Positions 4,182 to 47,200 of a DNA stretch of 64,000 nucleotides are shown here, in pieces. Location: positions 10,429 to 74,428 of the forward strand of contig CAYUTQ010000004.1 of assembly GCA_964447805.1 (NCBI GenBank). Direction: 5' to 3'. Source of the DNA: an uncultured Clostridia bacterium. Lineage in GTDB: Bacteria > Bacillota > Clostridia > Tissierellales > DATGTQ01. The translations under genes were made by a program, and so were the position numbers. Position 1 is the first letter of the stretch. The number at the start of each line of letters is the position of its first letter. Below the pieces are notes generated by a model. It was not told where the DNA came from, did no database searches, and was given only the letters and a program-made list of their open reading frames with translations.

Positions 4182-4215
4182 TAGATAATCAATGAAATGA
4201 ATTGGTAAAAGGTGG

Positions 4216-5036: not shown

Positions 5037-5047
5037 GAGGTGAAAAT

Positions 5048-6740: not shown

Positions 6741-6751
<11 letters not shown>
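5048..6751 (+). CDS. cas8b: Cas8b/Cst1 large subunit (type I-B)
   Basis: 567 aa in the position between cas6 and cas7. It has the CxxC...CxxC zinc-finger pair (CFICDRK...CDLCKFVYSC) usual in Cst1/Cas8b. GTG start after GGAGGTG RBS. Confidence 0.8.
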
Positions 6752-8536
<1,785 letters not shown>

Positions 8537-8538
<2 letters not shown>

Positions 8539-8563
8539 GGCCCTATTTTAATAGGGCTTTATA
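8537..8563 (+). terminator. Stem-loop between cas5 and cas3 (possible attenuator/partial terminator)
   Basis: GCCCTAT-TTTA-ATAGGGC is a 7-bp stem, extendable by wobble/AU pairs. It is followed by only a short T tract (TTTAT). Confidence 0.3.
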
Positions 8564-8584
8564 ATAGTAGAGGGGGATTTGTGT

Positions 8585-10873: not shown

Positions 10874-10886
10874 AGTGAGTGATACC

Positions 10887-11378: not shown

Positions 11379-11390
11379 AGGAGCGAAAAA

Positions 11391-12383: not shown

Positions 12384-12391
12384 TAGGATTT

Positions 12392-12670
12392 ATGTATGTA
12401 ATATTGATGTACGATATTGTTACAGATGAAAAAGGACCTAAAGTTGCAAGAAATACTTTTAAGACATGTAAAAAATATCTAACTCATATACAAAAATCCG
12501 TGTTTGAGGGTAATTTGACAGAATTAGATTTAATGAAATTAGAGGCAGAATTAGATGATTACATTAGAAAAGATAGGGATTCTCTTATTATATTTAAAAG
12601 TAGAAGTGAAAAATGGTTGGAAAAAGAATTTTGTGGAATAGAAGATGATAAGACATCCAATTTTTTTTAA
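12392..12670 (+). CDS. cas2: Cas2
   Basis: Starts MYVILMYDI, the classic Cas2 N-terminal beta strand with catalytic Asp. About 92 aa, immediately after cas1. Confidence 0.85.
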   Translation: MYVILMYDIVTDEKGPKVARNTFKTCKKYLTHIQKSVFEGNLTELDLMKLEAELDDYIRKDRDSLIIFKSRSEKWLEKEFCGIEDDKTSNFF

Positions 12671-18800: not shown

Positions 18801-21800
18801 GATCTAGGTCATATGATGGAGTTTCACTTGCGAGTCTTTTAATAGAACTACAGTAGAATGTAAATTTTTTTATCCTAAGCCTTCTATTTAGTCTGTATTA
18901 AGCTTTTAATAGAACTACAGTAGAATGTAAATATAGAAATAAAATTCACACAAAAATGGATTAAGCTAACCTTTTAATAGAACTACAGTAGAATGTAAAT
19001 AAGTATATCCAAATATTCTAGGATCTAATATATACCATCTTTTAATAGAACTACAGTAGAATGTAAATCATAGATGGAGGGCAGTATCTTCACATCCAGG
19101 TCATCTTTTAATAGAACTACAGTAGAATGTAAATATACACATCTTAATATCAATATACTAAAAGCTATAACTTTTAATAGAACTACAGTAGAATGTAAAT
19201 TGGAGTTGCGGTGGAGCCTTTTTCGAGTTTAGGTGACTTTTAATAGAACTACAGTAGAATGTAAATTACTCTATCAAGTTCTTTAACTTTTTCTTTATAT
19301 GTCTTTTAATAGAACTACAGTAGAATGTAAATTAAGAAATATAAAATCAAATATACTGGGCATAACAGCTTTTAATAGAACTACAGTAGAATGTAAATGC
19401 ATCTTCAACCAATGCCATGACATCAGAAATATCTCTTTTAATAGAACTACAGTAGAATGTAAATATACAGTAACAAAATCATAACAAAATATTGGGAAGA
19501 CTTTTAATAGAACTACAGTAGAATGTAAATTGATGTCGGCCATTTCTTTTGTTTTTCCAGATGAATCTTTTAATAGAACTACAGTAGAATGTAAATAAAA
19601 TTGCTAGAAAAGCATGGTAAAAAAGATAATGACTTTTAATAGAACTACAGTAGAATGTAAATGGATGATATAGATAAGAGTATTGATAAGATTGAGGTCT
19701 TTTAATAGAACTACAGTAGAATGTAAATCTTGATGAAGTATTAGTTGACTTAAGAGGATCTTTCGCTTTTAATAGAACTACAGTAGAATGTAAATACTAC
19801 TAGAGAAAAATTAAACGATACTACTATAAACCTTTTAATAGAACTACAGTAGAATGTAAATTATTTTCTTAGCTGTTTTATCACTTGTTCCAGCTAACTT
19901 TTAATAGAACTACAGTAGAATGTAAATTTGAGTGGACAATCTCCTAACAATACAGGAGGTTCTCTTTTAATAGAACTACAGTAGAATGTAAATTGGATAA
20001 CATGATTAAATTGGACAGGTCTTATTCTCACTTTTAATAGAACTACAGTAGAATGTAAATAATGGCATAGATGGGCATGGTGTAGGTTGGTGTAAAACTT
20101 TTAATAGAACTACAGTAGAATGTAAATGACTCAGCAGAACAGGTATTGATTAGAGGATTAAACTTTTAATAGAACTACAGTAGAATGTAAATAAATTCGA
20201 CTGTATCACAGGAGGATTTCCTTGCCAACTTTTAATAGAACTACAGTAGAATGTAAATATCCACTCCTCATCTTTTATATCTCCTCTTCTTAATCTTTTA
20301 ATAGAACTACAGTAGAATGTAAATTATAAACGACATGCCCAAAATAGCGATTCCAGTTAAGCTTTTAATAGAACTACAGTAGAATGTAAATTATTATCCT
20401 ATCCTCTTTTTCAAATTGCTCATATAACTTTTAATAGAACTACAGTAGAATGTAAATTTAGAAGTCATAAGTAAAAGAATAAAGAAACTGCATAACTTTT
20501 AATAGAACTACAGTAGAATGTAAATTAAACGGGGAGTTTGAAGAAGAACATACCCGCTGGACTTTTAATAGAACTACAGTAGAATGTAAATAGCTATCCA
20601 TTTAGGTTGGATAACAGAAACAGCGTTCTTTTAATAGAACTACAGTAGAATGTAAATAGTTCTCGAACGGTCGGGAAAGTACATCTTGGGGAGCTTTTAA
20701 TAGAACTACAGTAGAATGTAAATTATTAATGCAGGCGGAGGAACTGGTGCAGAGGTTTTACTTTTAATAGAACTACAGTAGAATGTAAATTTTTTATACA
20801 TTAGTTCATAGATGTAATTATATTTAACTTTTAATAGAACTACAGTAGAATGTAAATGTAATTGTAAAGCTTCGTTCTGTGTAAGGAAATTCACTTTTAA
20901 TAGAACTACAGTAGAATGTAAATTAATAGGACCTAATATTCTTCCTACTTTAACTCCATCTTTTAATAGAACTACAGTAGAATGTAAATATATAATCTAA
21001 AATTCCTTTTGTTACAGCTTCTGCAACCTTTTAATAGAACTACAGTAGAATGTAAATAAGGCGGATTATGTTGATAGGATACTCAAGAATAAACTTTTAA
21101 TAGAACTACAGTAGAATGTAAATGTAGTACCTTAGGGAGTGATTAAATGAAAGCGGAGGCTTTTAATAGAACTACAGTAGAATGTAAATAAAGTTAAACT
21201 GTGGATTATAATAAAGCCTTCTTCCCTTTTAATAGAACTACAGTAGAATGTAAATCTTAATTCATCATACTTACTAAAGTCATAAGGAACACCCTTTTAA
21301 TAGAACTACAGTAGAATGTAAATAAAGTTTTATTTGCTGAAGCTGTCACTGCTTCACATACTTTTAATAGAACTACAGTAGAATGTAAATACTGTTGTCT
21401 TGCCACTAAAAGTAGTTCCTTCCATAACTTTTAATAGAACTACAGTAGAATGTAAATTGAGTATGACTCCATTTCTCCAATATGATTAACACAACTTTTA
21501 ATAGAACTACAGTAGAATGTAAATTTTTATGGTGATATGAATTTGAAAAAACGAGAACAAACTTTTAATAGAACTACAGTAGAATGTAAATGTCATTAAT
21601 CTTCTAATCCAGCCTTCTGTATCCATCTTTTAATAGAACTACAGTAGAATGTAAATACTAGAATATGATAAATAAACTTCATCTGTAGGTACCTTTTAAT
21701 AGAACTACAGTAGAATGTAAATCCTAATGCACAAGCATATTCTACTTGTGTTCTAATACTTTTAATAGAACTACAGTAGAATGTAAATATTTTGTTTTTC

Positions 21801-23182
21801 TGCTGTTACATTTTCCAATGATTTACTTTTAATAGAACTACAGTAGAATGTAAATTTGCCTGCTTGTCATCGGGATTGATTTTTACTTTCCCTTTTAATA
21901 GAACTACAGTAGAATGTAAATTATATAGGCGGAAAATCATCAGCAGGGCATGGAAAACTTTTAATAGAACTACAGTAGAATGTAAATATATCTGGATCAT
22001 CTGATAAGGGTTGCGATACAAACTTTTAATAGAACTACAGTAGAATGTAAATGTGACTTGTATAGTTATTATACCCAACCGAATCAACCTTTTAATAGAA
22101 CTACAGTAGAATGTAAATAAAGCTGTCTCTAAACTTTCAAATCTGTCTTCAACTCTTTTAATAGAACTACAGTAGAATGTAAATAAGCAAGATGGATTAA
22201 AGGCTTACAAAGAATCTTTGCTTTTAATAGAACTACAGTAGAATGTAAATCCTTAAATCATTGTACTTCTTCATCTGTGCTTGGGTTCTTTTAATAGAAC
22301 TACAGTAGAATGTAAATACGGGTAAGACTACATTAGTGAATATTTTAAGAGACTTTTAATAGAACTACAGTAGAATGTAAATTATCTCTATATTTCTGTT
22401 TTTCATCTTCTGTAATTTTATCTTTTAATAGAACTACAGTAGAATGTAAATTTAGGTTTGTTGCTGCGTTCAACATTTTAGGTATGACTTTTAATAGAAC
22501 TACAGTAGAATGTAAATTAGTTCTCCCACATGATTTACAAGTTTTTTGCATAACTTTTAATAGAACTACAGTAGAATGTAAATATATCTTCAAGGCTGTT
22601 ATTGATAGCATTTTCTAATCTTTTAATAGAACTACAGTAGAATGTAAATTTCTCTTTTTAATATTCTTCATACTAACTTCTCTTACTTTTAATAGAACTA
22701 CAGTAGAATGTAAATTCATTTTTTACAAACTTTAGTATATTTTTTTCTTTGTCTTTTAATAGAACTACAGTAGAATGTAAATTGAGGTTAGAACGCTTAG
22801 TGAGAAATTTATATTCTTCCTTTTAATAGAACTACAGTAGAATGTAAATAAAAACAACCAATATGCGATACCGTGTCTTTTGTTTTCTTTTAATAGAACT
22901 ACAGTAGAATGTAAATATCAAAAAGATAAAGAAAGCATTAGGATTTGACTTTAGCTTTTAATAGAACTACAGTAGAATGTAAATGAAGGAAGGGGAGCCT
23001 TATATATTTGAAGATGGTAGCTTTTAATAGAACTACAGTAGAATGTAAATGCCTATATTGCGACTACAATAGAATCTCGTGGTGAACTTTTAATAGAACT
23101 ACAGTAGAATATAAATAATTATAATCACCATTCAAAATATATTTAGATATACCTTGTAATAGAACTATCCTAATATGCAGAG
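12855..23182 (+). CRISPR. CRISPR array: 155 conserved 30-bp repeats plus 1 decayed terminal repeat, spacers about 34-39 bp
   Basis: The repeat is CTTTTAATAGAACTACAGTAGAATGTAAAT. I located every repeat start from 12855 to 23087. Repeat 155 (23087-23116) carries one G>A change (..AATATAAAT). The terminal copy at 23153-23182 is CTTGTAATAGAACTATCCTAATATGCAGAG. Confidence 0.97.
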
Positions 23183-23349: not shown

Positions 23350-25197
23350 GTGACTACATCAAAAAGTAGGCAACCAATTAAATTGCTGAAGAGTATAAGC
23401 TTTCCAACATTTCAACTTTATGCAAAGATTAATAATAAAAAATTGGATCCTGAATTAGCACTTAAAATTTCGGTTTTAGAAACTATGTTATGGTTAAGAA
23501 AACGATTTAGAGAACTTGAAATACCAAGTGAAATAATATTGCCAGAACCAGAAGATTATGAAATTGTAAATAAAAATGATTTTAAATCATTTCATATAAA
23601 TGAAGGTTATGTTTTAGATGTTGTGTATATTAAAGAATGTGGTATATGGTCTCTTCGTTTAATAGAATCAGATTTAGGACCAGAACCAGGAAAGCGAAAT
23701 CAAAAAAGAAAACCAGTACCAGGACGACTTTTTCAGACTAATATAGCATTTGCTATATATAATAATCAATTAGAATGTGGATTTAAAACATTATGTTCGG
23801 AACCAGAAGGTACGGATGTACCTTGTGAGGTTTTTAGATTAGCAGTGGTAAAATCAATAGTTAGGAATAAATTATTAGGATTAGAGCAAATTTATCCTAT
23901 TATAGAAGAAGCTCATTATGTAGATAATATAAATAAAATTAGAAAACTAAAAAAATTTATAAATGATAAAAATAGACAAATGCCATTAGTTATAGTAGTT
24001 GAACATATTCCAAAAGTTGATTTATCAAGAATTGAAAATAAATTTTTCAATTCTGATGTAAGGTATCAAGATTTAAAAAATAATATGTTATATAAAGAGT
24101 CAAGCAAAGTCACAAACAATCCAAAGCTTTCTTTTGATGCTAAAGATATTATTAAATACAGAATGGGATATGCACAATTTACAATAATATCAAAAAAAGC
24201 AATAGAAGATTATAATAGGATTATGGGTACAGATTATTCAGTTTCAGAAGGAGATGTTAGAATTGTATATCCTTTGAAATTTGATGACAATTCTGAGTTA
24301 TATAAATTAGATGATATTATTGCTAATAAAGATTATTTCAAGAATTGTTTAGTGGACAAACTTCAAAATTATCCTAAAGGCAAAAATATGGAGTTTGGAA
24401 ATGTAAAATTTTTAAATGAAGCACGGATTATTCAACAAGATCAAATTATTATGAAAAGTAATTCTAAAAAAGAGGCAATAAAGGCAAATGAGATTAAATT
24501 AGAAAGTATTAAACAAATATATGAAGAAAATATAAATAATTTACAAAGAGAATTAGAAGAAAAGAATAATAGAATAGCTAAGTTAAAGCATAAAAATTCC
24601 TTAAAAGAAAAAGAATTAAAAAATATAGATGCAAAATGGCAAAGAAAGATTGAAAAGCAAAAGAATATGTATGATGAGGAAATAATTAGTTTAAATAATA
24701 AAATTAAACGAAAGGAACGATTATTAGAAAGGCCAACAAAACCAGAAGAAGTACCTAGTTGGGTAGAAAAATATTTTTTTGATAAACTTATATTCCATAA
24801 AAGGGCTCAGGAGTTAATAAATAAGACTCCTATATTTGAAATTGATATGGATTTATTATGTGATGCTATTGAATTTTTAGCCTATGAATATCGAAATAAA
24901 GTTTTAGGTTTAATAAGTAAAGAAGAGATGAATGATATTTGTTCAAAAAAGTACGATAGACCTTTTACTGTTGGAACTTCAGGAAACTTAAGTATATATA
25001 AATACCCTAAAGAATATAAGATAAAATATGGAAAGGGTTTTACTGGGAAATCAGTAGAAGTAGCATTAAATATGCATTTAAAAGTAGGGAATGATAATGA
25101 AAATTTATTAAGGATTTATTTCTTCTTTGATAAAACGAATAAGTTAATAATAGTAGGTTCATTACCTAAACATTTACCTACTATTTCATATAAATGA
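23350..25197 (+). CDS. Hypothetical protein, 615 aa, with a central coiled-coil
   Basis: Long uninterrupted ORF with a GTG start after AAAGGTGA RBS. A Lys/Glu heptad-rich segment spans roughly residues 370-460. I recognise no family signature. Confidence 0.65.
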   Translation: MTTSKSRQPIKLLKSISFPTFQLYAKINNKKLDPELALKISVLETMLWLRKRFRELEIPSEIILPEPEDYEIVNKNDFKSFHINEGYVLDVVYIKECGIWSLRLIESDLGPEPGKRNQKRKPVPGRLFQTNIAFAIYNNQLECGFKTLCSEPEGTDVPCEVFRLAVVKSIVRNKLLGLEQIYPIIEEAHYVDNINKIRKLKKFINDKNRQMPLVIVVEHIPKVDLSRIENKFFNSDVRYQDLKNNMLYKESSKVTNNPKLSFDAKDIIKYRMGYAQFTIISKKAIEDYNRIMGTDYSVSEGDVRIVYPLKFDDNSELYKLDDIIANKDYFKNCLVDKLQNYPKGKNMEFGNVKFLNEARIIQQDQIIMKSNSKKEAIKANEIKLESIKQIYEENINNLQRELEEKNNRIAKLKHKNSLKEKELKNIDAKWQRKIEKQKNMYDEEIISLNNKIKRKERLLERPTKPEEVPSWVEKYFFDKLIFHKRAQELINKTPIFEIDMDLLCDAIEFLAYEYRNKVLGLISKEEMNDICSKKYDRPFTVGTSGNLSIYKYPKEYKIKYGKGFTGKSVEVALNMHLKVGNDNENLLRIYFFFDKTNKLIIVGSLPKHLPTISYK

Positions 25198-25299
25198 AAA
25201 TATTACAACAATAGCTTAAAGTATAAAAAATATTTTTATACATATTTTTATACATTTTTTATTATATGTTATAATAATTATATAAAACTAAATATAAAA

Positions 25300-25500
25300 C
25301 AATTAGGTTCTATTATATAGATTAAAAAGGGAAATTAGTGAAAAGCTAATACAGCCCCGCTACTGTAAGTGGGAACGAAATCAATAAAGATCCACCAGAT
25401 TTATTCTGGGAAGGTATTGAAAGTAGGATGAACCGCAAGTCAGGAGACCTGCCTATTTTGTATATAAGTAAGCCTTCGGTGGGAAGGAATTACTTTCTAT
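25300..25500 (+). promoter_or_regulatory. Cobalamin (B12) riboswitch
   Basis: AAAAGGGAAATTAGTGAAAAGCTAATACAGCCCCGCTACTGTAAG matches the conserved core including the B12 box (GCCCCGCnACTGT). AAGTCAGGAGACCTGCC is the usual 3' element. It lies upstream of corrinoid/cobalt transport genes. Confidence 0.8.
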
Positions 25501-29981: not shown

Positions 29982-30722
29982 GTGATATTTATGAATAATA
30001 AAATAATGTTTTTTTGGGTACTAATATTATTAATTAGTTTTGTCCCGACTGAATCGCATGCTATGCACATAATGGAAGGATTTTTGCCAGTAGGTTGGTC
30101 AATTTTTTGGTTTATAGTGACTATTCCATTTTTAGTTGTAGGTATTAGAAGAGTTAATAAAATAATGAAGGAGGATACAAATAGAAAGATTTTATTAGGT
30201 TTGGCAGGAGGATTTGTATTTGTATTATCAGCTCTAAAAATACCTTCAGTAACAGGTAGTTGTTCTCATCCTACTGGAGTAGGATTAGGCGCAATTTTAT
30301 TTGGTCCTACTACTATGACTGTTGTTGGAATAATAGTATTATTATTTCAAGCTTTGTTACTTGCTCATGGAGGCTTAACTACATTAGGAGCAAATACTTT
30401 TTCTATGGCTGTTGTAGGTCCTTTAGTTTCTTATGGAATATTTAAGGCTTTAAAAAAGAAAGATGGAAGTAATTCTTTTGCAGTATTTTTATCAGCGTGT
30501 TTAGGAGATTTAATGACATATGTAGTTACATCTGTTCAATTATCATTGGCATTTCCAGATTCAGCAACTGGTTTTGCAGGTTCTATGGGGAAATTTTTAA
30601 GTGTATTTGCAGTAACTCAAATTCCATTAGCAATAGTAGAAGGAATTTTAACAGTAATTATATATAATTTATTATTAGAGTACAATCAGAAGGGAGTGTT
30701 AGGGAGTGAAAACATCAAGTAA
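29982..30722 (+). CDS. cbiM: Cobalt ECF transporter substrate component CbiM
   Basis: A signal-like N-terminus followed by the [11 protein letters not shown] motif characteristic of CbiM. An alternative start at 29991 is possible. Confidence 0.85.
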
Positions 30723-30996
30723 AAATGTTTTGCTTTTAGTATTGGCAATTGTAATTATAATTGTGCCATTAATATTTATGAAAGATTCGGAATTTGAAGG
30801 CTCTGATGATCAAGCAGAAGATGTAATAGGCCAAATAGATCCAGACTATAAACCTTGGTTTGAGAATCTTTGGGAACCACCAAGTGGTGAAATAGAAAGT
30901 TTATTGTTTTCTGTTCAAGTAGCTATTGGTGCAGGAATTATAGGATATATACTTGGACTTATGAAAGGGAAGAAACAAGTTGCTAATAATAGATAA
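30706..30996 (+). CDS. cbiN: Cobalt transport protein CbiN
   Basis: 96 aa with two TM segments flanking an acidic loop, in the position after cbiM. Confidence 0.8.
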
Positions 30997-31660
30997 GTAT
31001 GCATATACTAATAAATTGACAGATTTTAATTCTATGGCAAAGTTTTTATTTGCCATAGGAACTCTTATTATAGTTATATGGATAAATAATATATATGTTG
31101 ATTTATTGATGTTTGGAATTATGTTTGTAATGACTACATTTATAGCCCAAATACCAGTAAGAGTATATTTGAAACTTTATATTTTGCCAGGTATTTTTCT
31201 TTTATTTAGTATAATACCTATTCTTATAAATGTGGGGAAAACAGATATATTTCTTTATTCTATAAAGATTGGCAGGAGATATTTTGGTATAGGAAATGAC
31301 ACAATAAATACGTCTTTAATTACTGCTTTTCGTGCCCTAGCTTGTATTTCTTCAACTTATTTTTTAGCTTTAACTACACCTATTAATCAACTTATCAAAA
31401 TATTTAAAGGACTAAAAATACCTAATTCTATGATAGAGTTATTAATATTAATTTACAGATTTATATTTATTTTTTTGGAAGAGGGTAAGGAAATATATAT
31501 GGCTCAAGAAATGAAATTTGGTTATTACGGAACAAAAAATAGTTTTAAATCTTTTGCTCTTCTTGTAAAATGTTTGTTTATAAGAGTATTATTGCGTTAT
31601 GAAGACATGATAATAGCTTTAGAAAGTAAATTATATAATGGGGAATTTAAAATTGGGTGA
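30980..31660 (+). CDS. cbiQ: ECF transporter transmembrane component CbiQ
   Basis: 226-aa polytopic protein with a CbiQ/EcfT-type C-terminal region (ALESKLY), between cbiN and cbiO. Confidence 0.8.
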   Translation: MLIIDKYAYTNKLTDFNSMAKFLFAIGTLIIVIWINNIYVDLLMFGIMFVMTTFIAQIPVRVYLKLYILPGIFLLFSIIPILINVGKTDIFLYSIKIGRRYFGIGNDTINTSLITAFRALACISSTYFLALTTPINQLIKIFKGLKIPNSMIELLILIYRFIFIFLEEGKEIYMAQEMKFGYYGTKNSFKSFALLVKCLFIRVLLRYEDMIIALESKLYNGEFKIG

Positions 31661-32487
31661 TGAGTGTGCTTAAGACAGAAAGATTAACCTATTTATATGA
31701 GGATGATACTATTGCACTAGAAGACATAAATGTAGATTTTAGTAAAGGAAAAAGAATTGGAATAATTGGAGAAAATGGATCTGGAAAATCTACTCTTTTT
31801 TTAAATTTGATAGGAATACTAAGGCCTAAAAAAGGGAAAGTGATATTTAATGAAAAGCCTATAAAATATAATAAGAGATTTTTGAGAGAATATAGAAAAA
31901 GAGTAAATATAGTATTTCAAGATCCTGATAAACAAATATTTTATTCTAATGTTTATGATGATGTGGCATTTGCTTTGAGGAATTTAGGATATGAGGAAGA
32001 AGAGGTTTCTATAAAAGTAGAGAATGCTTTAGCAAAGGTAGGAGCAACAGAATTTAAGAAAAAACCTGTTCATTTTCTCAGTTACGGCCAAAAGAAAAGG
32101 ATAGCAATAGCAAGTATATTAGCTATGGATGGAGAAATAGTTCTTTTTGATGAACCTACAAGTGGTTTGGATCCTTTTATGACAAAAGAAATGGTAAAGA
32201 TACTTAAAAATATTAGTAAAGAAAAAACAATAGTAATATCTAGTCATGATATGGATTTAATATATGAGATTTGTGATTATGTATATGTATTAAATAAAGG
32301 TAAAATCATAAAAGATGGATTGGTTGAAGAAGTATTTTGTCAAGAAAAAATTATTAAAAAGGCAGGCTTAAATCAACCGTGGCTTGTAAAACTTCACAAA
32401 AATTTAGGTATACCTTTATTTAGAAATGAAGAAGAATTTTATAAGTATTGGAGAGATAAAAATGGATTTAGCATTAATCGGAGTTAA
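31657..32487 (+). CDS. cbiO: ECF transporter ATPase CbiO
   Basis: Walker A GENGSGKST, signature YGQKKR and Walker B VLFDEPTSGLD. Confidence 0.85.
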   Translation: MMSVLKTERLTYLYEDDTIALEDINVDFSKGKRIGIIGENGSGKSTLFLNLIGILRPKKGKVIFNEKPIKYNKRFLREYRKRVNIVFQDPDKQIFYSNVYDDVAFALRNLGYEEEEVSIKVENALAKVGATEFKKKPVHFLSYGQKKRIAIASILAMDGEIVLFDEPTSGLDPFMTKEMVKILKNISKEKTIVISSHDMDLIYEICDYVYVLNKGKIIKDGLVEEVFCQEKIIKKAGLNQPWLVKLHKNLGIPLFRNEEEFYKYWRDKNGFSINRS

Positions 32488-37019: not shown

Positions 37020-37530
37020 AATCAGAGGTTTTAAATATAGTAGATAGAAAGTTTAATGATAAAAAAACTAGAAGTAGCAGTAAGTGATCTGACCTATGTT
37101 AGGGTAAAAAATAAATGGAATTATATATGTACTCTAATAGACCTTCATAATAGAGAGAGAATCTATTATTCATTTGGAAGAAATAAAGGTGTTAGTTTAA
37201 TGGAGAGAGTTCTTTTGAGCTATAGATATTCTTTAAGAGATATAAAAGCATTTCATTCAGATGGTGTTAGAAAATATGATAATAAAAAAAGAAGATGTAC
37301 TACAAAACTTTAAAAATTGAAGACTAAGTAGAAAAGGAAATCCTTATAACAATGCTGTAAGTGAAGTCATAAATAAAATATTAAAACAAAATTGATATAT
37401 AAGAACTCATTTAAAGCTTTGGAGAAATTGAAATGGGACTATCGAAATATATTTATTGGTACAACAATATTAGAACTCACGGAGTTTTAGATCATATAAC
37501 TTTCCTGGAATATAGAAAAACAATCAGCTA
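37020..37530 (+). pseudogene. IS3-family transposase (integrase-core) remnant
   Basis: VSDLTYVRVKNKWNYICTLIDLHNRE...FHSDGV is a decayed rve domain (normally DxTY...W.Y......D...R...HSD.G). The C-terminal NPYNNAVSE...YNN.R.H block appears in shifted frames. Confidence 0.6.
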
Positions 37531-38214
37531 GAATAAATAATAATATGATATTGAGAATAATTTTGTATAAAAAAGTTATCATTCTACAGGAAAATTTTAA
37601 TTTTGCTAAAATATTTAATAACTTAAGTAAAAAAATGTCGCAACATGTTGAAAATCCAGGTAAATATCTTGTTGATATAAATGACAGTATAATACATAAT
37701 TAATATAAAGATATTATTACTAATTTTATAAAAATCAGTTGCTTAAATTGTAAAAGAAAAATAAGAGAAATATTGGATTGACATAATACATTAAAGATAA
37801 GATGAGATTTTAATGACTAGAAAGTGTTACTGTGAAGATTCAAATGAAGCAAATATTCTGTTGACGATGTTAATTAACTTATCTACAAGGCTATATAATT
37901 AGGCATAAATTTTTAGAAGAAATTTTAATAGGCAAGATGTTTTTAAATGATTGAAGCACAGAATAATAAGGTAAAAGGTCCAAAATTAGATAAATTAATG
38001 TTATTAAAAGTTAATTGACGTTCATACAAGGGCTTTCGGATCCTTAACATAATATTAGGTCGTACTTATATTATTTAACATAGAGAGGCGAAAACCCTTT
38101 TTGAAAATAGAGATATTTTAGAGTTATAAGAAAAAGTCACTGTTTATATTATAGTGATTCCAAGTGTTAGGAGTTATGATTAACGCTATTATCATGTTAA
38201 AGGAGGTGAACAAA

Positions 38215-38306
38215 ATGAGTAAAAAAGAAAAAAACCTTCAATAGTAAAAGTGAAAGTTTCAGAAGGTCCTTCTGGAGCTTCTGGTACATGCCATTGTAGT
38301 AACTAA
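38215..38306 (+). CDS. Candidate RiPP precursor peptide, split by a frame change in an A-run (MSKKEK[K/N]-PSIVKVKVSEGPSGASGTCHCSN)
   Basis: A strong RBS AAGGAGGTG lies 6 nt before ATG 38215. The zero frame stops after 9 codons (TAG 38242). The -1 frame from CCT 38235 runs to TAA 38304-38306 and ends in GTCHCSN. A stem-loop follows, and radical SAM maturase genes lie directly downstream. Confidence 0.5.
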
Positions 38307-38309: not shown

Positions 38310-38341
38310 GAAGAGGGCAATATTATATTGCTCTCTTCTTT
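38310..38341 (+). terminator. Stem-loop after the precursor ORF (attenuator-type, weak T tract)
   Basis: GAAGAGGGCAATA (38310-38322) pairs with TATTGCTCTCTTC (38326-38338), 13 bp with one G-U. It is followed by TTT. Confidence 0.4.
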
Positions 38342-38529: not shown

Positions 38530-39756
38530 ATGTTAGGATTTTCAAATAAGATAATAATTCTCAAAGATAAAATTAAAATTAAAATTAAAAATAGTTGTGA
38601 TTTTTATGATATTAATGATGAGATGTATGATTACTTGAAAAGATTATATGAAAGTGGTTTTAAAGAATTTAATTGTGAAAAAGATGTAGATCAATTTTTG
38701 ATTGATGAAAATATTGTTATAACGGTAAATTCAAACAATAAATATAATCCGTTTGTAAAAAAGCAAAAACATATTCAAACAGAATTAAATAGAGTATTTA
38801 TTCAAGTTACTGAGCAATGTAATTTAAGATGCAAACACTGTTATGTTGAATCGTGTCCGAGCAAAACAACGAAATTAACGAAAAAAGATATAATTCAATT
38901 CGTAGAAAAAGCTATTGAGGTTGGTATAACCCAAGTTGATTTTACTGGCGGGGAAATTTTTATGGAAGATTATATTTTTGAATTATTGGAATATTTATCT
39001 CAGAAGCCAGTAACAGTAACTTTATTCTCAAATCTAACAATTTTAAATGAAAAACAAATTTTAAAATTGAAGAAGTATAGTTGCTTAAGAGATATAATCA
39101 CAAGTATCGATTATAATACACCTGAAAAGCACAATGCTTTTAGAGGTGGGAAAAATGCATACCAAAAAACACAAAATAACATTAAGTTGTTATTAGATTC
39201 TGGAATAAAAGTAAAAGTTAATACCATGGTTATGGATGACAATCACCAAGATGTAGTTGAAATATTTAAAGGTTTTACGGCTAAAGGTATTATATGTAAT
39301 TTAGATAACATAATTCCTGAAGAAAGAATGAGAACTAAAAAAGAAATAAATGAGAATGTTAAAAAGAATGCGTTGGTTATTTCAACAATAATGAACTGTT
39401 TCCAAGAGAAAAAAGAAATATGTATAAAAAATATAGAGACATTTAACAAGGAAATATCAGGAGAGTTTTGTGGTGTAGGAAAATCTATGATTTATATTAC
39501 GGCATATGGTGACGTAACATTATGTCCAAGCCTTACTGAAGGCTTCAAATTAGGAACTATATATGATAAGGATCTATCAAACATTGTAGATAACTTGAAG
39601 AAATTTAATAAACTTAGTTGTGAAAAAAGTGATTGCGAATTTATTGAAAAATGTACTGGTGGATGCAGAGCAAGAGCAATGAGATATTTAGGAGGAATAA
39701 CGAACCCTGATCCTGTAGCTTGTATTAAGTTTGGAGTTGATAAGTATGAAAATTAA
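38530..39756 (+). CDS. Radical SAM/SPASM peptide maturase with N-terminal RRE-like extension
   Basis: CNLRCKHC (CxxxCxxC), and C-terminal SPASM Cys motifs (CGVGKS..YGDVTLCPS; CEKSDCEFIEKCTGGCRARA). About 90 aa precede the rSAM core. Confidence 0.85.
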   Translation: MLGFSNKIIILKDKIKIKIKNSCDFYDINDEMYDYLKRLYESGFKEFNCEKDVDQFLIDENIVITVNSNNKYNPFVKKQKHIQTELNRVFIQVTEQCNLRCKHCYVESCPSKTTKLTKKDIIQFVEKAIEVGITQVDFTGGEIFMEDYIFELLEYLSQKPVTVTLFSNLTILNEKQILKLKKYSCLRDIITSIDYNTPEKHNAFRGGKNAYQKTQNNIKLLLDSGIKVKVNTMVMDDNHQDVVEIFKGFTAKGIICNLDNIIPEERMRTKKEINENVKKNALVISTIMNCFQEKKEICIKNIETFNKEISGEFCGVGKSMIYITAYGDVTLCPSLTEGFKLGTIYDKDLSNIVDNLKKFNKLSCEKSDCEFIEKCTGGCRARAMRYLGGITNPDPVACIKFGVDKYEN

Positions 39757-39790
39757 GAGAAATTTTTTATAAAAAATAATAGGAGATGAA

Positions 39791-39955
39791 ATGTTAATTA
39801 TAAATATGTCTACTGGAGAAATATTTGAATTGAGTAAAGAGTATATTGATGTAATTGAAAAAATATATAGTGGGATAAATATTGATAATGAATGTGAGAG
39901 TAATTTGGTTAAGGAGCTTGAGATGGAAGGGGTAATTAATCTTGAATATTGTTGA
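39791..39955 (+). CDS. PqqD-like small peptide-chaperone (RRE) protein, 54 aa
   Basis: AGGAG RBS. The sequence MLIINMSTGEIFELSKEYIDVIEKIYSGINID...LVKELEMEGVI fits the PqqD pattern (xxG.i..Ln......w.l..G...........L..L...G.I). It is not in the supplied ORF track because it is short. Confidence 0.55.
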   Translation: MLIINMSTGEIFELSKEYIDVIEKIYSGINIDNECESNLVKELEMEGVINLEYC

Positions 39956-41096
39956 TAAGCTAAAAAAAATAAACGAATATTCTTTTTTCGCAGATTATCA
40001 TCCTAGTAATTTTATTAGAAGAATAGCATACAAAGCGTTTACTAAAAATGTAAGACCAACTGAACCAAGTTTTGTATCTTGGAACTTAGTGAATGAATGT
40101 AATTTAAACTGCTTTTTCTGTAGTGCTGATGCGAATAAAAAGAAATCCAAAGAACTTGATTATGAAAGTTGTATGAAAATAGTTGACTATTTAATCCAAA
40201 ATAAAGTCTCATATATACAGCTCTTAGGGGGAGAACCTACCCTTCATTCTAGATATCTAGATATTATTGAAAAATTAATTTATTCCAATATATTCGTCGA
40301 ATTAGTAACAAACGGGAGCGGAATTGACTCTGATGCAGCTGAACGATTTTCGAAAATGCCTAAGGAATTTTTAAGAATAAAGGTGAGTTTGGATTCATCA
40401 GATAAAATTATTAATGACAAGCAGAGAGGAAAAAATAGCTTTCAATATGCTACCAATGCTATAAGTCTCTTATCAGATCGAGGCATTATCAATTTGAGAG
40501 TTCAAATGGTGGTGACAAATTTTAACAAGGATAATATTTTTGAAATGTATAAATATCTACATAAATATAATCTAAATTCATTTGGAATAACTATGCTACT
40601 CCCAACGGGAAGAGGTAAGGAATTTGAACCTCCTGAAATAGATCACAATATACTTGATCAAATTTTAGCGATGATTGATTATTATGATGATAAAAAGAAA
40701 ATTAAGCTGGAGAAATTTCATTTTGGTTATATCCAAAACATTATGAAGGAAGAGAGTATTTGCTATGGGGAAATAGATGAAAAAACCTCAAATTTAATAT
40801 TTAAGATTAAATGTAGCACTGGAATAGTTAAAATGAACATTGACTCTAATGGAGATGTATATCCTTGTGATTATCTTAGATTTCCTGAATTTAAAATGGG
40901 CAATATATTAACAGACACTCATGATGAGATATGGAATAATAAAAAATTCTTAGAATTGGTAAATCTTAACAGAAATGATAAGAAAGAATGTAGCTCTTGT
41001 AAGCATAAAAAGTGTTGTACAGGTTGTACAGGGCTTGCTTATGAAAAATATAGAGACATTAGGAGAAAAGACCCAAACTGTAAGATTGTAAATTAG
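39942..41096 (+). CDS. Radical SAM/SPASM peptide maturase (second)
   Basis: CNLNCFFC cluster motif. The SPASM region has SNGDVYPCDY and CSSCKHKKCCTGCTG. Confidence 0.85.
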   Translation: MNIVDKLKKINEYSFFADYHPSNFIRRIAYKAFTKNVRPTEPSFVSWNLVNECNLNCFFCSADANKKKSKELDYESCMKIVDYLIQNKVSYIQLLGGEPTLHSRYLDIIEKLIYSNIFVELVTNGSGIDSDAAERFSKMPKEFLRIKVSLDSSDKIINDKQRGKNSFQYATNAISLLSDRGIINLRVQMVVTNFNKDNIFEMYKYLHKYNLNSFGITMLLPTGRGKEFEPPEIDHNILDQILAMIDYYDDKKKIKLEKFHFGYIQNIMKEESICYGEIDEKTSNLIFKIKCSTGIVKMNIDSNGDVYPCDYLRFPEFKMGNILTDTHDEIWNNKKFLELVNLNRNDKKECSSCKHKKCCTGCTGLAYEKYRDIRRKDPNCKIVN

Positions 41097-41116: not shown

Positions 41117-41941
41117 ATGTTATACAATAATTTTGAAGAAGCAACTGTAGAGATTGAAAGCAGTATAATCGAGAAAATTGATTTTGAAAAATTAATAAAT
41201 GACTGCATTAAAATGGGATTTAATAAGTGTATTATTCATATTGAAGAGGAGAAAAAAATGAAACAAATAAATAAATATCTTCTCAAATATAACAGTGAAA
41301 TTGAGTTTTATGTTTATCAGGATAGGCTGTTAAATAAGCAAGAAAATCAAGAAGTATTCTATATGAGTGAGCAATTAAAGGAGGATCCACATATAAATGA
41401 GATATTTATCTATAACTTAGATTTCAATAAAGATAACTCCATAGAAGGTATGCTGGATTTTTTCAAGGAAAAAGAAGAAATCTTAGAAAGATATGAATAC
41501 ATTATTATTAAAATTTTTTTTGTTAAGAAGATCTTAATTAATATGAAACAGTTTAATGATGCATTACAGAAAATTCCGAGAAGTGTAAAAATATATTATG
41601 AATCAAGTTTTATTCCAACACAAACTTGTATTGAACATCCGTGTAATATATATTTATGCTCTGGGGCAAATTGCCATACAGTAAAAAGTAAGTTTCCAAG
41701 AGAACTTTATATTGATGAAAGTGGAAGTATTATTCCGTATGGAATTAAAAATAAGGAATTAACAGTTGGGAATATTTTAAAAGAATCATTAGCGTTAAAT
41801 CTCGAAAAATATAATAAATCTCCTGCTCATAATAAATTCATTGAAAATTGTAGATATATCAGAGCTGAATATCTTACAATTTGGTCATTTTCTTTTTTCC
41901 CATTTGGAGGTATTGTAAATGTCATATCAGAAAAATCTTAA
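41117..41941 (+). CDS. Hypothetical protein with Cys-rich SPASM/twitch-like C-terminal segment but no CxxxCxxC
   Basis: 274 aa with AAGAGG RBS. Contains CIEHPCNIYLCSGANCH and DESGSIIPYG (resembling the SPASM G-x-x-PC context). Its end overlaps the next rSAM gene. Confidence 0.6.
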   Translation: MLYNNFEEATVEIESSIIEKIDFEKLINDCIKMGFNKCIIHIEEEKKMKQINKYLLKYNSEIEFYVYQDRLLNKQENQEVFYMSEQLKEDPHINEIFIYNLDFNKDNSIEGMLDFFKEKEEILERYEYIIIKIFFVKKILINMKQFNDALQKIPRSVKIYYESSFIPTQTCIEHPCNIYLCSGANCHTVKSKFPRELYIDESGSIIPYGIKNKELTVGNILKESLALNLEKYNKSPAHNKFIENCRYIRAEYLTIWSFSFFPFGGIVNVISEKS

Positions 41942-42788
41942 CATTTATGTAAGTAATATTTGCAATTTAAATTGTAAATATTGTTATAGAGAAAAGAGCA
42001 AGCATAATATTAAAAAAACTCATTCAGAACAAATATTAGAAAAACTTAATGAATTTAAAGAAAAAGGGATAGAATCCATTCATTTTACTGGAGGAGAACC
42101 TTTATTGTGGCCAGAGCTTTTAGAAACATTAAGAGATGTAAAAAAATTTGGATTTATGACTAACATTACAACTAATTGTACAATTGAAATACCTGAAGAA
42201 CTTATTAAATTAGTTGATAAATTTATTCTAAGTATAGATGGACTGCAAAATACAATGAGAGTTCATAGAGGAATTCAGGATTTTCATATCATTGAAAAAA
42301 ATTTAAATAAACTTATGAAGAATAACAGCTGTATAGACTTAAATGTAGTTGTAAGTAACCATAATTTGGATGTATTTCATTCAGAAATATTCAAAATTAT
42401 AGAAAAATATATGCTTAAAGACAATATAGGAAAGGTTACAATATTATGCGTATATAGTAAAGATTTAAAATTTAAGCTAGAAAATGGTGATATCCTAACA
42501 TTTAACAAGAATGTGCAAAAACTTATAGAATTATTAGGGTATAAAATTAATATTCAAAATAATATTTTCTCTAAAAATAAATTTTTAGAATTATTAGACA
42601 TAGGTGCATTTAAATTTCCTATTTGGTTCGATATAACAGAAAAGGTGTTTTACACTAGCATAAAGAATAAATATAATACCTTAGATGATTTATTTGATAA
42701 TTACAATGATGATAGTCAGAAATTAATTGAAAATCTTTTAAGCCATAATAATGACTATCTAGATCCAATTGGAGGAGCTATAGAATGA
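41919..42788 (+). CDS. Radical SAM enzyme (third; no SPASM domain)
   Basis: CNLNCKYC near the N-terminus, GGEPLL SAM-binding motif, 289 aa. GGAGG RBS. Confidence 0.8.
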   Translation: MSYQKNLNIYVSNICNLNCKYCYREKSKHNIKKTHSEQILEKLNEFKEKGIESIHFTGGEPLLWPELLETLRDVKKFGFMTNITTNCTIEIPEELIKLVDKFILSIDGLQNTMRVHRGIQDFHIIEKNLNKLMKNNSCIDLNVVVSNHNLDVFHSEIFKIIEKYMLKDNIGKVTILCVYSKDLKFKLENGDILTFNKNVQKLIELLGYKINIQNNIFSKNKFLELLDIGAFKFPIWFDITEKVFYTSIKNKYNTLDDLFDNYNDDSQKLIENLLSHNNDYLDPIGGAIE

Positions 42789-43717
42789 ATATTGTTCAGA
42801 TAAAGAATTGTAGTAAAAAATATAATAAAAATGAATTTTTCAGTATAGAAAATATTGATTTAAAAATCGGGAAAGGTGAGATAGTTGGACTTATCGGACC
42901 TAATGGAGCCGGTAAGACAACACTTATAAAAACTTTAAGCGGACTTTTAAAACCAACAGAATATGAAGAATTTAAAATCTTAGGAGATGATATCTATAAA
43001 GGAAAAATGAAAGTCCCTAAGGTTGGCTTGGTTTTGAATTCAAACCAGATGTATGATGGCTTAACTGTTATGGAAAATATTCAATTTTTCTTGAAAATGC
43101 ACAAAATAAAGAAAAACAAAGATGAAATTATGAGCCTGCTAAAAAGGTTTAATCTGCAAGGTCGAGAAAGTTCCCTAGTTAATAGTTTATCCACTGGAAT
43201 GAAGCAGAAGCTTAACATAATAAGAATTGTTCTATTAGAGGTTCAATTTTTAATACTGGACGAACCTACAAGTGGGTTGGATCCTGTATCTAAATCAGAT
43301 GTTCACAATCTGTTATATACACTTTCTAAAGAAATGAATATAACTATTTTAATAAGTTCGCATATTATGAATGAGGTTCAAAGACTTTGCACCAGAGTTG
43401 TGTTCCTTAATAAGGGGCAGATCATAAAAGATAACAATATGGACGATATTTTTAAGGAATTCCATAAGGATGTTATAGAGCTTAGGATATCTAAAGATGA
43501 GACCAAAGAAATGGATAAGAGGCTTAGAGATTACGGCATAAAGAAATACATTATTTGGAGTCAGAATGATAACAGCACTGCCTTAATAATGGAGAAGATA
43601 GCACGTAAGGAGACTTTTATTTCAAAGCTTCAAATAAGTTCGTTCAATGAAAGACCTGTACAATTAGAAGATGTATTTTTCTATGAATTGTATAAGGATA
43701 GATTGGAGGGAAACTAA
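42785..43717 (+). CDS. ABC-2-type transporter ATPase (export/immunity)
   Basis: Walker A GPNGAGKTT, signature LSTGMKQK and Walker B LILDEPTSGLD. Confidence 0.85.
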   Translation: MNIVQIKNCSKKYNKNEFFSIENIDLKIGKGEIVGLIGPNGAGKTTLIKTLSGLLKPTEYEEFKILGDDIYKGKMKVPKVGLVLNSNQMYDGLTVMENIQFFLKMHKIKKNKDEIMSLLKRFNLQGRESSLVNSLSTGMKQKLNIIRIVLLEVQFLILDEPTSGLDPVSKSDVHNLLYTLSKEMNITILISSHIMNEVQRLCTRVVFLNKGQIIKDNNMDDIFKEFHKDVIELRISKDETKEMDKRLRDYGIKKYIIWSQNDNSTALIMEKIARKETFISKLQISSFNERPVQLEDVFFYELYKDRLEGN

Positions 43718-44434
43718 ATGCTTATATACCTTATGTTAAAAAGTCTTCTTCGAAATAAGTGGAACATGGTTAAATTATTTTTAATCTCCCCTGTAAATGC
43801 TGTTCTTCCAGTAATCTTATTAAGTGGTGTAATAGGCACAAATATAGATAAAACCATAATTCTAAAGATTTGCTTGTGGTCATGTTTTTATTTTACTATA
43901 TTCGAGATAATCTCAAGGAGGATGGAATTTTTTGGGAGTGAGAAAATTCAGGATGTGTTACTTTCGAGAATTAGCTTACATAAATATAATTTCTATCAGA
44001 CAGTTGCGGTAAATATTTTATATATTCCATCGCTTCTTATAACACTGTATCTTTATGATTTTATATTCCATTTGAATATTGATTTTATATTTGCAATTAT
44101 TTGTGCTTTCTTTGTTTTTATCAATAATGTAATTGTGAGCAACATCATGCTTGCCGTTCACTTAAAAACCCAAAACTATTTCAATAGGTTCAACTTTGGA
44201 ATGGATATTATCTATATAATAAGTGGTGTATTATACCCTATAAGTATACTTCCAAGATTTCTAAGAGGAGTTTCACAGCTTATACCAATAACCCATGTTA
44301 TTAGTTTCTCTGAAGGAAATGTTTCTCATATAGAAATAGCAATTTTGGTTTTTTTAATTATGATGGCGTTTGCATTATGGAACACAGAAAAAAGCATAAA
44401 GAAGTACATTTTATCAGGAGGATTCTATGGGTAG
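43718..44434 (+). CDS. ABC-2 family permease
   Basis: 238 aa with multiple hydrophobic helices, abutting the ATPase stop. Confidence 0.7.
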   Translation: MLIYLMLKSLLRNKWNMVKLFLISPVNAVLPVILLSGVIGTNIDKTIILKICLWSCFYFTIFEIISRRMEFFGSEKIQDVLLSRISLHKYNFYQTVAVNILYIPSLLITLYLYDFIFHLNIDFIFAIICAFFVFINNVIVSNIMLAVHLKTQNYFNRFNFGMDIIYIISGVLYPISILPRFLRGVSQLIPITHVISFSEGNVSHIEIAILVFLIMMAFALWNTEKSIKKYILSGGFYG

Positions 44435-45185
44435 CATTATATTGAAGAATGTATTTTTTTATAAAAGAAACTGGAAAGAATTGTTGTTAAACACATTAAG
44501 AATCTATCTAAGTGTGATTCCTTTCTATTACTTCGCTCTATCACAATCAAGGGGAGCAGAAAGCATAAGGTTTACTTTATTAACTTTAATTATTGCAGGA
44601 ATAATAAGCAATACGGTTATTGCAGCAAACTACGAACTTTACCAAGAGATTATTAGCGAAAAAATGATAAATTTTAGGATTGCTAATATTAAAATAACGG
44701 AGTATATTTTTGCTCAAACGATTTTTTATTTTTTCATTTATCTAAGCCAATATATTCTGGTTTTAATTGTGATGAATATCTATGGAATTATTGATGTGAA
44801 AGTTTCAATATATACCATAATAAATACAGTACTATTTATGGGAATAATAGTTGTTATATCAGCGATTATAAGCGGCATTCTAGCAGCATTTACTCTTAAA
44901 ACAAAGAGGTTTGCCTACAGCTCCATAATGATGAGTGTTATATTGATATTCTCTGCATGTTATATGCCTTACAGATTGATGAACTCTGGTTTTAAAGGAG
45001 TAGCTCTTTTATCACCATTCACATATATAATAAATATTTTTAGAAGTGCATTTGATGTTGAAAGTTTGATTTTTCCAATTGGAATAATATATCTGATACT
45101 GATTATTCAAATTTTAGTTTTGGGATTTATATTGGTGAGAATATTATGTAGATATTTTAATGAATTGATAAACAACACTATATAA
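44427..45185 (+). CDS. ABC-2 family permease (second)
   Basis: 252 aa and polytopic. It overlaps the previous permease by 8 nt. Confidence 0.7.
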   Translation: MGSIILKNVFFYKRNWKELLLNTLRIYLSVIPFYYFALSQSRGAESIRFTLLTLIIAGIISNTVIAANYELYQEIISEKMINFRIANIKITEYIFAQTIFYFFIYLSQYILVLIVMNIYGIIDVKVSIYTIINTVLFMGIIVVISAIISGILAAFTLKTKRFAYSSIMMSVILIFSACYMPYRLMNSGFKGVALLSPFTYIINIFRSAFDVESLIFPIGIIYLILIIQILVLGFILVRILCRYFNELINNTI

Positions 45186-45229: not shown

Positions 45230-45770
45230 ACACTCTTATAAGGGGTACAGCCCACATATATGTAAAAATTGGCCATGTGATGGGGTGATTCTCCAAAAGC
45301 ATTCATTATTTAAATTTCAAAGCTAGATTTAAAAAAATTTGTTATTTAATAAATGTTATGCAAAGTGCCTATAAAATATGGTAGTCACCTTGCATGTTTT
45401 ACCCAGGATAAATTAATAAATTAACACTTTTAGGTAATAATTGTTTTAATGCAAAAAAACATGTACCCTAAAATTAGGAAGGTGAATTTTGTAGCACGAA
45501 AAGCGAAAAAAGTTAGAAGAGCTTTAAAAAAATTTGATGAGAGTGAAATAGATTTTTATTACTAGAAAGTGATATAATAATTAATGAATTAATAAAAAAA
45601 GGGTAAGTCTTTGTTAACGAAAAAAGTAATGAAATCTCAGCAGCGAAGGATTTACTGAAGATAAAAGATACAGTAGTAACATGTATGCATTAAATACTCA
45701 GAAACCTACAGTAGAAGAAGTAATAATAAGGTATAAAGGAAACTATGTAGGTGCATTAAAGGGTAACATC
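45230..45770 (+). pseudogene. Scattered transposase debris (ISAs1-like fragments)
   Basis: Short frame pieces such as NEISAAKDLLKIKDTVVT and ...GNYVGALKGN resemble ISAs1-family blocks, but they are broken by stops and out of order. Confidence 0.3.
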
Positions 45771-47200
45771 ATGTCTAAATATTCATTTGAATTTAAGTTA
45801 AGAGTAGTTAAAGAATAAATGGAGGGAGAAACTGGTGGTTACAAGTCTGTAGCTAAGAAATATGATGTAATAAATCATGGCTTGATTAGATATTGGGTTA
45901 ATGATTATAAAAAGTATGGAGAAGAGGGACTAAAAAGAAAGTCTACAAAAACTTTTTACTCTGGAGAATTTAAGCTTCGTGTATTACAATATAGGTAATA
46001 CCATAATTGCTCTTACAAAGAAGCTGCTAACCACTTTGTCAATTAGCAATCAGGCTACGATTGCTAATTGACAAAGGAAGTACTTAGATGAAGGCTTCGA
46101 AGGGCTTAATAAGTCGATTGGGAGGCCTAGTACTATGTCTGAAAATAAGAAGGAAAAAGATACTTTAAATCTCACGAAAAGTGAAAAAGAGGAACTAATA
46201 GAATTAAGAGAAGAAAATGAATTTTTGAGAGCGAGCTTGGCATATGAAAAAAAGTTAAAAGCCTTAATCCAAGAAAGAGAGCAAAAACAAGGAAAAGACA
46301 AAAGTAATAATGAAATTAAGGCAGAGGTTTCCTTCAATCAAATTGAAAATCTGGCTTAAGATATCTAACTTACCTAAGAGTTCATTTTATGAGTGGGTAC
46401 AAAAAATAGAAACAGTTAACAAAGAAGAATTAGAATTGACTAATGTTATAAAAAATATATTTGAAGAGTCTAATGAAACTTATGGATACAGAAGAATTGC
46501 TATTGCTTTAAAACAAAGGGTTTTAAGGTCAATCACAAAAGAGTATATAGAATTATGAGAGAAAATGATTTGAAGTACATAAAATTTTCCAGAAGATCTA
46601 GAGGCTATAGTTCTTTCAAAGGTGAAGTTGGAAGAATAGCGGAGAATAAGTTAAATAGGCAGTTCCAGGTAACAGCCCCTAATAAAGTATGGGTTACAGA
46701 TGTAACTGAATTTAAAATTCAAGGTAGCAATAAAAAACTTTATCTATCACCTATTATGGATCCTTTTAATAGTGAAATAATTTCTTTTAATCTATCTACA
46801 GCTCCTACGATGAAATTTACCACAGATGTCTTAGATGATGCTCTTAAAAAGCTTCCTAAGAAGCATCAATTAACAATTCACTCTGACCAAGGCTTCCATT
46901 ATCAGCATGTTCAATGGGTGAAAAGATTAAAAAATAGAAATATTGAACAAAGTATGTCTAGAAGAGGAAATTGTATAGATAACTCTCCAATGGAAGACTT
47001 CTTCGGGTTATTGAAACAAAAAATGTACTATGGAGAAAAATTCACATCAATTAATCAGTTGAAGAAAAACATTACAGGATATATTAACTGGTATAATAAC
47101 AAAAGAATAAAAGAAAAATTAAACGGCCTGTCACCTATTGAGTATAGGCAACAAGCCGAATAATTAATATTATCCGAAAGTTCGGATTAAAGGGTTCACA
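45771..47200 (+). mobile_element. IS3-family (IS150-like) element, transposase pseudogenised in orfA, orfB integrase core largely intact
   Basis: orfA MSKYSFEFKLRVVKE*MEGETGGYKSVAKKYDV...YSGEFKLRVLQYR* has in-frame stops. Leucine-zipper-like pieces lie at 46135-46558. The rve core at 46555-47163 has W.TD.T...HSDQG...GNCIDNSPME. The sequence ends ...GGGTTCACA at 47200 (the IS3 ...CA terminus). Confidence 0.7.

Follow-up and report, generated by a model that had tools for sequence, protein, structure and literature searches.

This locus raises the question of why the gene for a short peptide, at the head of an operon of radical-SAM enzymes, breaks off exactly at a slippery A_AAA_AAC heptamer and continues in another reading frame. 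From the 64-kb stretch of DNA in which it lies (the window), three readings had been put forward: a homopolymer assembly error, a slipped-strand switch or inactivating mutation, and translational recoding that limits precursor output. Comparison with related loci showed that a single nucleotide present in all relatives has been deleted from the gene, which is interrupted as a result, and that a ribosome using its only good start reaches a stop after 9 codons. The likely explanation is that the homopolymer truly lost a base and the precursor was inactivated, in a cluster that may be decaying.

The precursor gene and its operon

The layout of the gene is as originally predicted: a Shine-Dalgarno sequence serves the ATG at 38215, from which the 0 frame reads ATG AGT AAA AAA GAA AAA AAC CTT CAA TAG, encoding MSKKEKNLQ before it stops at 38242, and the Cys-containing C-terminal part lies in the -1 frame, as translation confirmed. 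The -1 frame is open from 38223, reads KRKKPSIVKVKVSEGPSGASGTCHCSN and ends at the stop codon 38304-38306; its C-terminal motif GTCHCSN is encoded at 38283-38303, in a C-terminal region containing the core (...SEGPSGASGTCHCSN). The junction does contain A_AAA_AAC: the A7 run is followed by CC, and the heptamer AAAAAAC at 38229-38235 is in the 0 frame. The GTG at 38250 is the sole start codon of the -1 frame and, again as predicted, a poorer one, with no Shine-Dalgarno sequence ahead of it. The features of the precursor region are as follows:

38200-38208, + strand: Shine-Dalgarno sequence AAGGAGGTG, 6 nt 5' of ATG 38215
38215-38244, + strand: truncated 0-frame reading, MSKKEKNLQ then TAG at 38242-38244 (by translation)
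38228-38234, + strand: A7 homopolymer, site of the 1-nt deletion relative to the A8 of the closest relatives (by locus alignment)
38235-38306, + strand: remaining precursor sequence, shifted into the -1 frame, PSIVKVKVSEGPSGASGTCHCSN and its stop, Cys-containing (by translation; motif conserved in family peptides)
38310-38338, + strand: 13-bp hairpin, then UUUAU, directly 3' of the precursor stop (dG -17.6 kcal/mol, z -5.5)

The stretch GGAGGTGAACAAAATG around the Shine-Dalgarno sequence is identical in all aligned loci (7/7), and a six-frame motif search of the 64-kb window for a second precursor copy gave a single match, this gene itself. The hairpin at 38310-38338 looks like a terminator or attenuator. 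All relatives keep it, L001 and L092 with A-U in place of a G.U pair, and it went uncalled in the consensus terminator scan.

The precursor gene heads an operon that continues with a radical SAM (rSAM)/SPASM enzyme, a small ORF, a second rSAM/SPASM enzyme, a 274-aa protein, a third rSAM enzyme, and an ABC ATPase with two permeases, a layout which we read from the sequence as that of a gene cluster whose product is a ribosomally made peptide modified by radical-SAM enzymes (RiPP):

38530-39756, + strand: radical SAM/SPASM enzyme 1 (rSAM1), 408 aa (Pfam and NCBIfam matches)
39746-39955, + strand: small conserved ORF, 69 aa in Tissierella relatives (by comparison with relatives)
39942-41096, + strand: radical SAM/SPASM enzyme 2, 384 aa (best NCBIfam match the mycofactocin maturase model, 159 bits against a cut-off of 265)
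41117-41941, + strand: 274-aa protein with no family assignment (conserved in Tissierella-type clusters; no Pfam or NCBIfam match)
41919-42788, + strand: radical SAM enzyme 3, 289 aa, lacking a SPASM domain (Pfam and NCBIfam)
42785-45185, + strand: ABC transporter, with the ATPase at 42785-43717 and ABC-2 permeases at 43718-44434 and 44427-45185 (Pfam and NCBIfam)

The cluster shares several traits with the sactipeptide systems (SkfA/SkfB, subtilosin AlbA) and with mycofactocin (MftA/B/C), i.e. rSAM/SPASM genes directly preceded by one for a short precursor, the C-terminal core of which contains Cys, a possible PqqD-like small partner, and an ABC exporter. It differs from them in having three rSAM enzymes, in a precursor motif that matches no model, and in its NCBIfam scores, which for all named maturase families (SkfB, AlbA, StsB, MftC, PapB and others) were far below the cut-offs. 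With regard to rSAM1, the scores were 90.8 against an equivalog cut-off of 300 for SkfB, 93.4 against 850 for AlbA and 108.7 against 625 for StsB; SkfB is also the nearest solved structure by sequence, and a class-level relationship of rSAM1 to the sactipeptide maturases is possible. A mycofactocin system was considered and is not supported, as judged both by the sub-cut-off score of enzyme 2 against the mycofactocin maturase model (TIGR03962) and by the CHCSN ending of the precursor, the C-terminal motif of the mycofactocin precursor being Gly-Val-Tyr. The small ORF is possibly a PqqD-like leader-recognition protein, judging from where it lies, how long it is and its resemblance to the lasso-peptide RRE TbiB1, the only match in a profile search of PDB sequences, which fell short of significance (E 0.81); Pfam and NCBIfam gave none.

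Elsewhere in the window, a very long CRISPR array at 12855-23116 holds 155 copies of the 30-nt repeat CTTTTAATAGAACTACAGTAGAATGTAAAT with a period of ~66 nt, which explains a 10-kb stretch without long ORFs; a Cas2-like ORF (12374-12670) lies directly before it, and the large ORFs at 713-12383 are presumably cas genes. Between this array and a cobalamin riboswitch at 25288-25470 (Rfam RF00174, 114 bits) there is a 615-aa ORF (23350-25197) with a long coiled-coil-like Lys/Glu-rich segment, and downstream of the riboswitch an operon runs into cobalt-transport-like genes (29982-32487) and a CbiK-like gene. The RiPP cluster itself is flanked by integrase-core (rve) transposase fragments at 37056-37313 and 46310-47163, and an 85-aa rve fragment is common to the window and the Tissierella praeacuta loci. 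A stretch of ~1.1 kb at 45727-46860, probably an IS-related insertion, is present in the window and missing from the close relative L089.

The A-run and the precursor in related genomes

The original prediction had proposed to compare the length of the A-run in related strains, and the aligned loci fell into three groups, with an intact gene in both groups of relatives:

L084, L089 and L088 (runs SRR4096353 and SRR8552800, and T. praeacuta GCA_900128955.1): 98.9-99.2% identity to the window; G-A8-CC; intact
L001 and L092 (sister lineage): ~93% identity to the window; GAT AAA AAA CC (GATAAAAAA); intact
Window and L085-L087 (window lineage): 100% identity; G-A7-CC; frameshifted

Among the aligned loci A7 is thus confined to the window lineage, and all five close relatives (5/5) are single-frame. 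The ancestral-type gene reads ATG AGT AAA AAA GAA AAA AAA CCT... and has 30 codons for amino acids, and the A8 loci encode the uninterrupted 30-aa peptide MSKKEKKPSIVKVKVSEGPSGASGTCHCSN, exactly as predicted from the joined pieces. The expectation that one extra A would restore the gene is therefore borne out, down to the product: a peptide recovered by profile search (P0098) matches MSKKEKKPSIVKVKVSEGPSGASGTCHCSN exactly, and another (P0122) is the product of this gene with the start placed at an ATG further upstream. Because the joined pieces give exactly the peptide found intact in relatives, we regard the two pieces as one conserved gene, beyond chance. In the sister lineage the run is an A6 interrupted by T, which means that A8 arose by a recent T-to-A change (Asp to Glu). 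No gene is annotated at the precursor position in L088, the T. praeacuta reference locus, which carries the A8 allele, and a scan of JGI metagenomes for the locus with any tract length gave no match.

The window's A7 was found again in three Logan assemblies (DRR027590, DRR027586 and DRR027578), which match the window at 100% identity over 7.2, 7.0 and 4.9 kb, respectively, and the exact window rSAM1 protein was found on six contigs. These three runs probably represent one population, and perhaps the window's own reads; their independence is that of assemblies and read sets rather than of strains. It is conceivable that the strain truly has A8 and that one A was missed in sequencing or assembly: a lone base is at stake, in an 8-nt homopolymer, the classic error site, the closest relatives have A8, and a systematic undercall would recur in every run, A7 being known from consensus assemblies. 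We nevertheless consider this unlikely. The same A7 in three separate per-run assemblies makes the homopolymer assembly error of the original prediction an improbable source, and the remaining A/T runs of 8 (2/2) and of 7 (12/12) are equal in length between the window and L089 over the ~11.3 kb aligned. No large gene looks split, either in the cluster or elsewhere in the window. Over the same ~11.3 kb there are five 1-nt indels relative to L089, four of them at A/T runs of at least 5. Those other than the precursor deletion (36244, 45512, 45526 and 45594) lie in stretches without large intact ORFs, and the ~6.5 kb of intact large genes are free of indels despite containing 80 of the 133 A/T runs of at least 5; the chance of this pattern is ~(53/133)^4 = 2.5% for four homopolymer events. 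The absence of indels from intact large genes suggests real mutations filtered by selection, rather than random homopolymer miscalls.

Two further lesions in the same operon are substitutions, and so cannot be explained by homopolymer sequencing error. The small ORF has a premature stop, Y9* (TAA at 39770-39772, TAT in relatives), and rSAM1 carries G265E (codon 39322-39324) at a position where all 15 other aligned homologues, down to 33% identity, have Gly (15/15). With L001 as outgroup for assigning changes to branches, both were derived in the window lineage, as was an in-frame gain of a 6-nt AAAATT repeat at 38568-38573 near the 5' end of rSAM1 (KIKIKIK vs KIKIK of T. praeacuta and L001), itself another slippage-type length change. 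The first 15 residues of the small ORF align with those of a 29%-identical homologue in L002 (MKIKRNFLYKIIGDE vs MRIEKNYIFTKIDNE), and because they are conserved there, the upstream ATG is taken as the real start and the stop as lying inside the ORF; an AGGAG stands 5 nt before ATG 39791, from which a 54-aa remnant may be made. A nonsense mutation of the substitution type together with G265E fits real decay, and makes a genuine frameshift likelier, and likewise a cluster that the window strain has ceased to maintain. The derived non-synonymous and synonymous coding changes number 7:4 on the window branch and 7:8 on the T. praeacuta branch, an excess on the window branch too small for significance, and the other seven cluster genes are intact. 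Taken together the whole cluster looks to be losing function in the window strain, and may be decaying.

Remoter relatives place the precursor in a wider family. A protein search with rSAM1 identified a 90%-identical relative (P0001) in L001, where an uninterrupted 32-codon gene stands at the same place (MSKKDKKPSIVKVKVADSPGPPGQSGTCHCSN), and a 41%-identical relative in L002/L003, where the peptide is MESLTVDKDSSEELVIEKVSIEEVVDTALIADGTCHCSN. A six-frame scan of genome-collection loci found the peptides ...SFACASGTCHCSA (L005 and L007) and ...DGSCHCSN (L009) beside first-enzyme homologues. In all of these loci, i.e. L001, L002/L003, L005, L007 and L009, a peptide ending in G[TS]CHCS[NA] lies 29-535 nt upstream of an rSAM1 homologue. 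Among the matches listed from a scan of species-representative genomes by rSAM1 alignment, identity was at most 43% (full-length at most 36%), all being remote relatives. The precursors of the family are located as follows:

Window: 38215-38306
L001: 749-847
L002: 5346-5465
L005: ~1355-1459
L007: ~5294-5398
L009: ~3450-3540

A profile of these peptides recovered 17 distinct peptides from a large protein collection, one of them on ~202 contigs. The C-terminal Cys-His-Cys motif is present in 15 of the 17 (G[TS]CHC in 14, GICHC in one), each a single ORF, and the other two (P0109 and P0110) have aberrant C-termini without it. A leader motif, KP[ST]I[STV]V, also recurs in several family peptides; in the window it is located immediately 3' of the break. 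Family peptides are 29-39 aa long and, in line with rSAM/SPASM precursors, are short ORFs by the maturases with a conserved core motif. No Pfam or NCBIfam model matches the precursor peptide, and a literature search with motif strings of G[TS]CHCS[NA] gave irrelevant matches only, so that a RiPP precursor family with this ending and three radical-SAM enzymes is apparently uncharacterised. In P0109 (L090:88-192, L091:382-486) the 3' end diverges from ...SFACASGTCHCSA to ...SFTCSRLGYLEIL, and a 602-aa ORF lies 3' of it in L090; there may have been an insertion into the core-coding region. We had considered P0109 as a recurrence of the precursor frameshift and rejected it, as the 3' end is replaced, not simply frameshifted.

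Programmed frameshifting, re-initiation and switching

A deliberately low level of precursor could in principle result from -1 frameshifting programmed at A_AAA_AAC, or from transcriptional slippage programmed on A7. The junction offers a legitimate X_XXY_YYZ heptamer in the right (0) frame, and the slip product, MSKKEKNPSIV..., is one residue off wild type. However, taking one A out of GAA AAA AAA CCT necessarily gives GAA AAA AAC CT, and the heptamer at the split is thus not independent evidence for recoding. AAAAAAC is also at chance frequency, with 40 occurrences in the window vs 39.4 +/- 5.4 expected from shuffles, and we interpret A_AAA_AAC as a by-product of the deletion, not a selected signal. 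Furthermore, the two-frame layout is not conserved: each of the five close relatives, like every recovered family peptide with the motif, uses one frame. Uninterrupted homologues with no conserved slippery site had been named beforehand as an argument against programmed recoding, and they are what we found in close relatives and family alike. A stimulator at functional spacing, either a downstream hairpin or pseudoknot at ~5-9 nt or an upstream SD-like sequence, is lacking, the nearest SD being that used for initiation, which ends 20 nt upstream of the heptamer. Maturation enzymes normally require an excess of their RiPP precursor, which does not favour a device for limiting precursor output, and at seven nucleotides the A-run is shorter than the runs of at least 9 on which efficient RNA-polymerase slippage reportedly usually occurs. 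The only hairpin within the coding region was examined as a candidate stimulator and rejected, since ~23 nt separate its start from the heptamer and L001 does not have it; it arises from the GPSGASG codon repeat.

Known frameshift sites put the heptamer in perspective. Sharma et al. 2014 (PMC4066793) found A_AAA_AAC to be of low efficiency in E. coli, albeit among the motifs with >0.10% frameshifting without stimulators, and proven in an IS element cluster. A certain amount of incidental slippage can thus be expected at the window's junction, with no sign of selection for it. One parallel is insA-insB' of IS1 (Escoubas et al. 1991, as cited in PMC4066793), where the same heptamer is used in the same register with no obvious stimulator. 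The resemblance is confined to the heptamer: in IS1 the two-frame layout and the motif are reportedly conserved among family members and yield a needed fusion protein, whereas here the layout occurs in one lineage only and the relatives make the same product from a single frame. The dnaX and IS3-type sites (A_AAA_AAG, flanked by an SD on the 5' side and a hairpin on the 3' side) likewise have an X_XXY_YYZ heptamer of A, but the window's heptamer ends in C (inefficient in E. coli), neither SD nor hairpin lies at the canonical spacing, and there is no conservation. Recoding that limits precursor output, as originally suggested, is not supported by the uninterrupted genes of the relatives, and we regard it as highly improbable.

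A core peptide could also be expressed from GTG 38250 as MKVSEGPSGASGTCHCSN, for instance by re-initiation after the stop at 38242. This GTG is only 5 nt past the 0-frame stop (38242-38244) and is in frame with the core, but the missing Shine-Dalgarno sequence counts against it, as does the nature of the product, which would lack both the leader motif KP[ST]I[STV]V, presumably needed for recognition, and the K-rich N-terminus. Such expression seems to us extremely improbable.

The A7/A8 tract might alternatively be a reversible contingency switch, which toggles the peptide by slipped-strand mispairing and has been caught in the OFF state in the window strain. As in phase-variable homopolymer contingency genes, the tract is 5'-proximal within the coding region, its length determines on or off, and the alleles differ between close strains, A7 vs A8 toggling the frame between lineages that are ~1% diverged. 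While a frame-toggling length polymorphism is thus present, a conserved and unusually long tract is not: in the sister lineage the run is interrupted (GATAAAAAA), and A8 is commonplace in this 28% G+C genome, with 11 A8 and four T8 runs in 64 kb (runs of length 7-8 number 50 for A and 25 for T). Compared with contingency genes, the tract is short, unremarkable for the genome and not conserved, and no heterogeneity is seen among the consensus assemblies: the three runs all assemble as A7, each allele is tied to its own substitution haplotype, and there is no sign of switching within a lineage. The further lesions in the cluster also suggest permanent loss. We therefore think a reversible switch very unlikely; of the two possibilities that the original prediction had named together, inactivation is upheld by the intact A8 gene of close relatives, and a slipped-strand switch is not, as the tract is not conserved. 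That the tract is a working on/off or dimmer device of any sort, be it a slipped-strand switch between strains or cells or -1 ribosomal or RNA-polymerase slippage supplying trace precursor, is very doubtful indeed.

Probable inactivation of the precursor in the window lineage

Our preferred reading is thus that in a T. praeacuta-like strain the precursor gene for a radical-SAM-modified peptide lost one A of its A8 run, strand slippage during replication being the probable cause of the shortening to A7. Ribosomes starting at ATG 38215 would then stop after nine codons, and neither the leader motif nor the Cys-His-Cys core would be made, which would leave the maturation enzymes without substrate. 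The cluster would be silent or nearly so, and may since have been accumulating further damage. Trace restoration by incidental -1 ribosomal or RNA-polymerase slippage would be physically possible, with no sign of selection for it. The lesion has the properties expected of a pseudogene, in that an intact close orthologue differs from it by an indel at the break and that it is reproducible across three assemblies. It agrees with homopolymer-indel frameshift pseudogenes in the loss of a single base from an A8 run, a stop three codons later, intact close orthologues and more lesions in the operon, and there is no essential difference from the usual cases, other than the unusual target, a 30-codon RiPP precursor.

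The phenomenon is therefore an already known one, a homopolymer frameshift pseudogene, and the frameshift, as a routine loss-of-function mutation, is of little weight in itself. It does illustrate that, where a genome is A-rich, finding a slippery heptamer at the point where an ORF breaks is no evidence of recoding. The peptide family is of more interest than the frameshift, but is a separate matter from it. RiPP precursors of ~30 codons often go uncalled by annotation pipelines, and genome-mining pipelines would score the window cluster as precursor-less, whereas the intact version of the precursor, the one suited to chemical work in preference to the window strain, is present in a sequenced isolate genome, that of T. 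praeacuta GCA_900128955.1.
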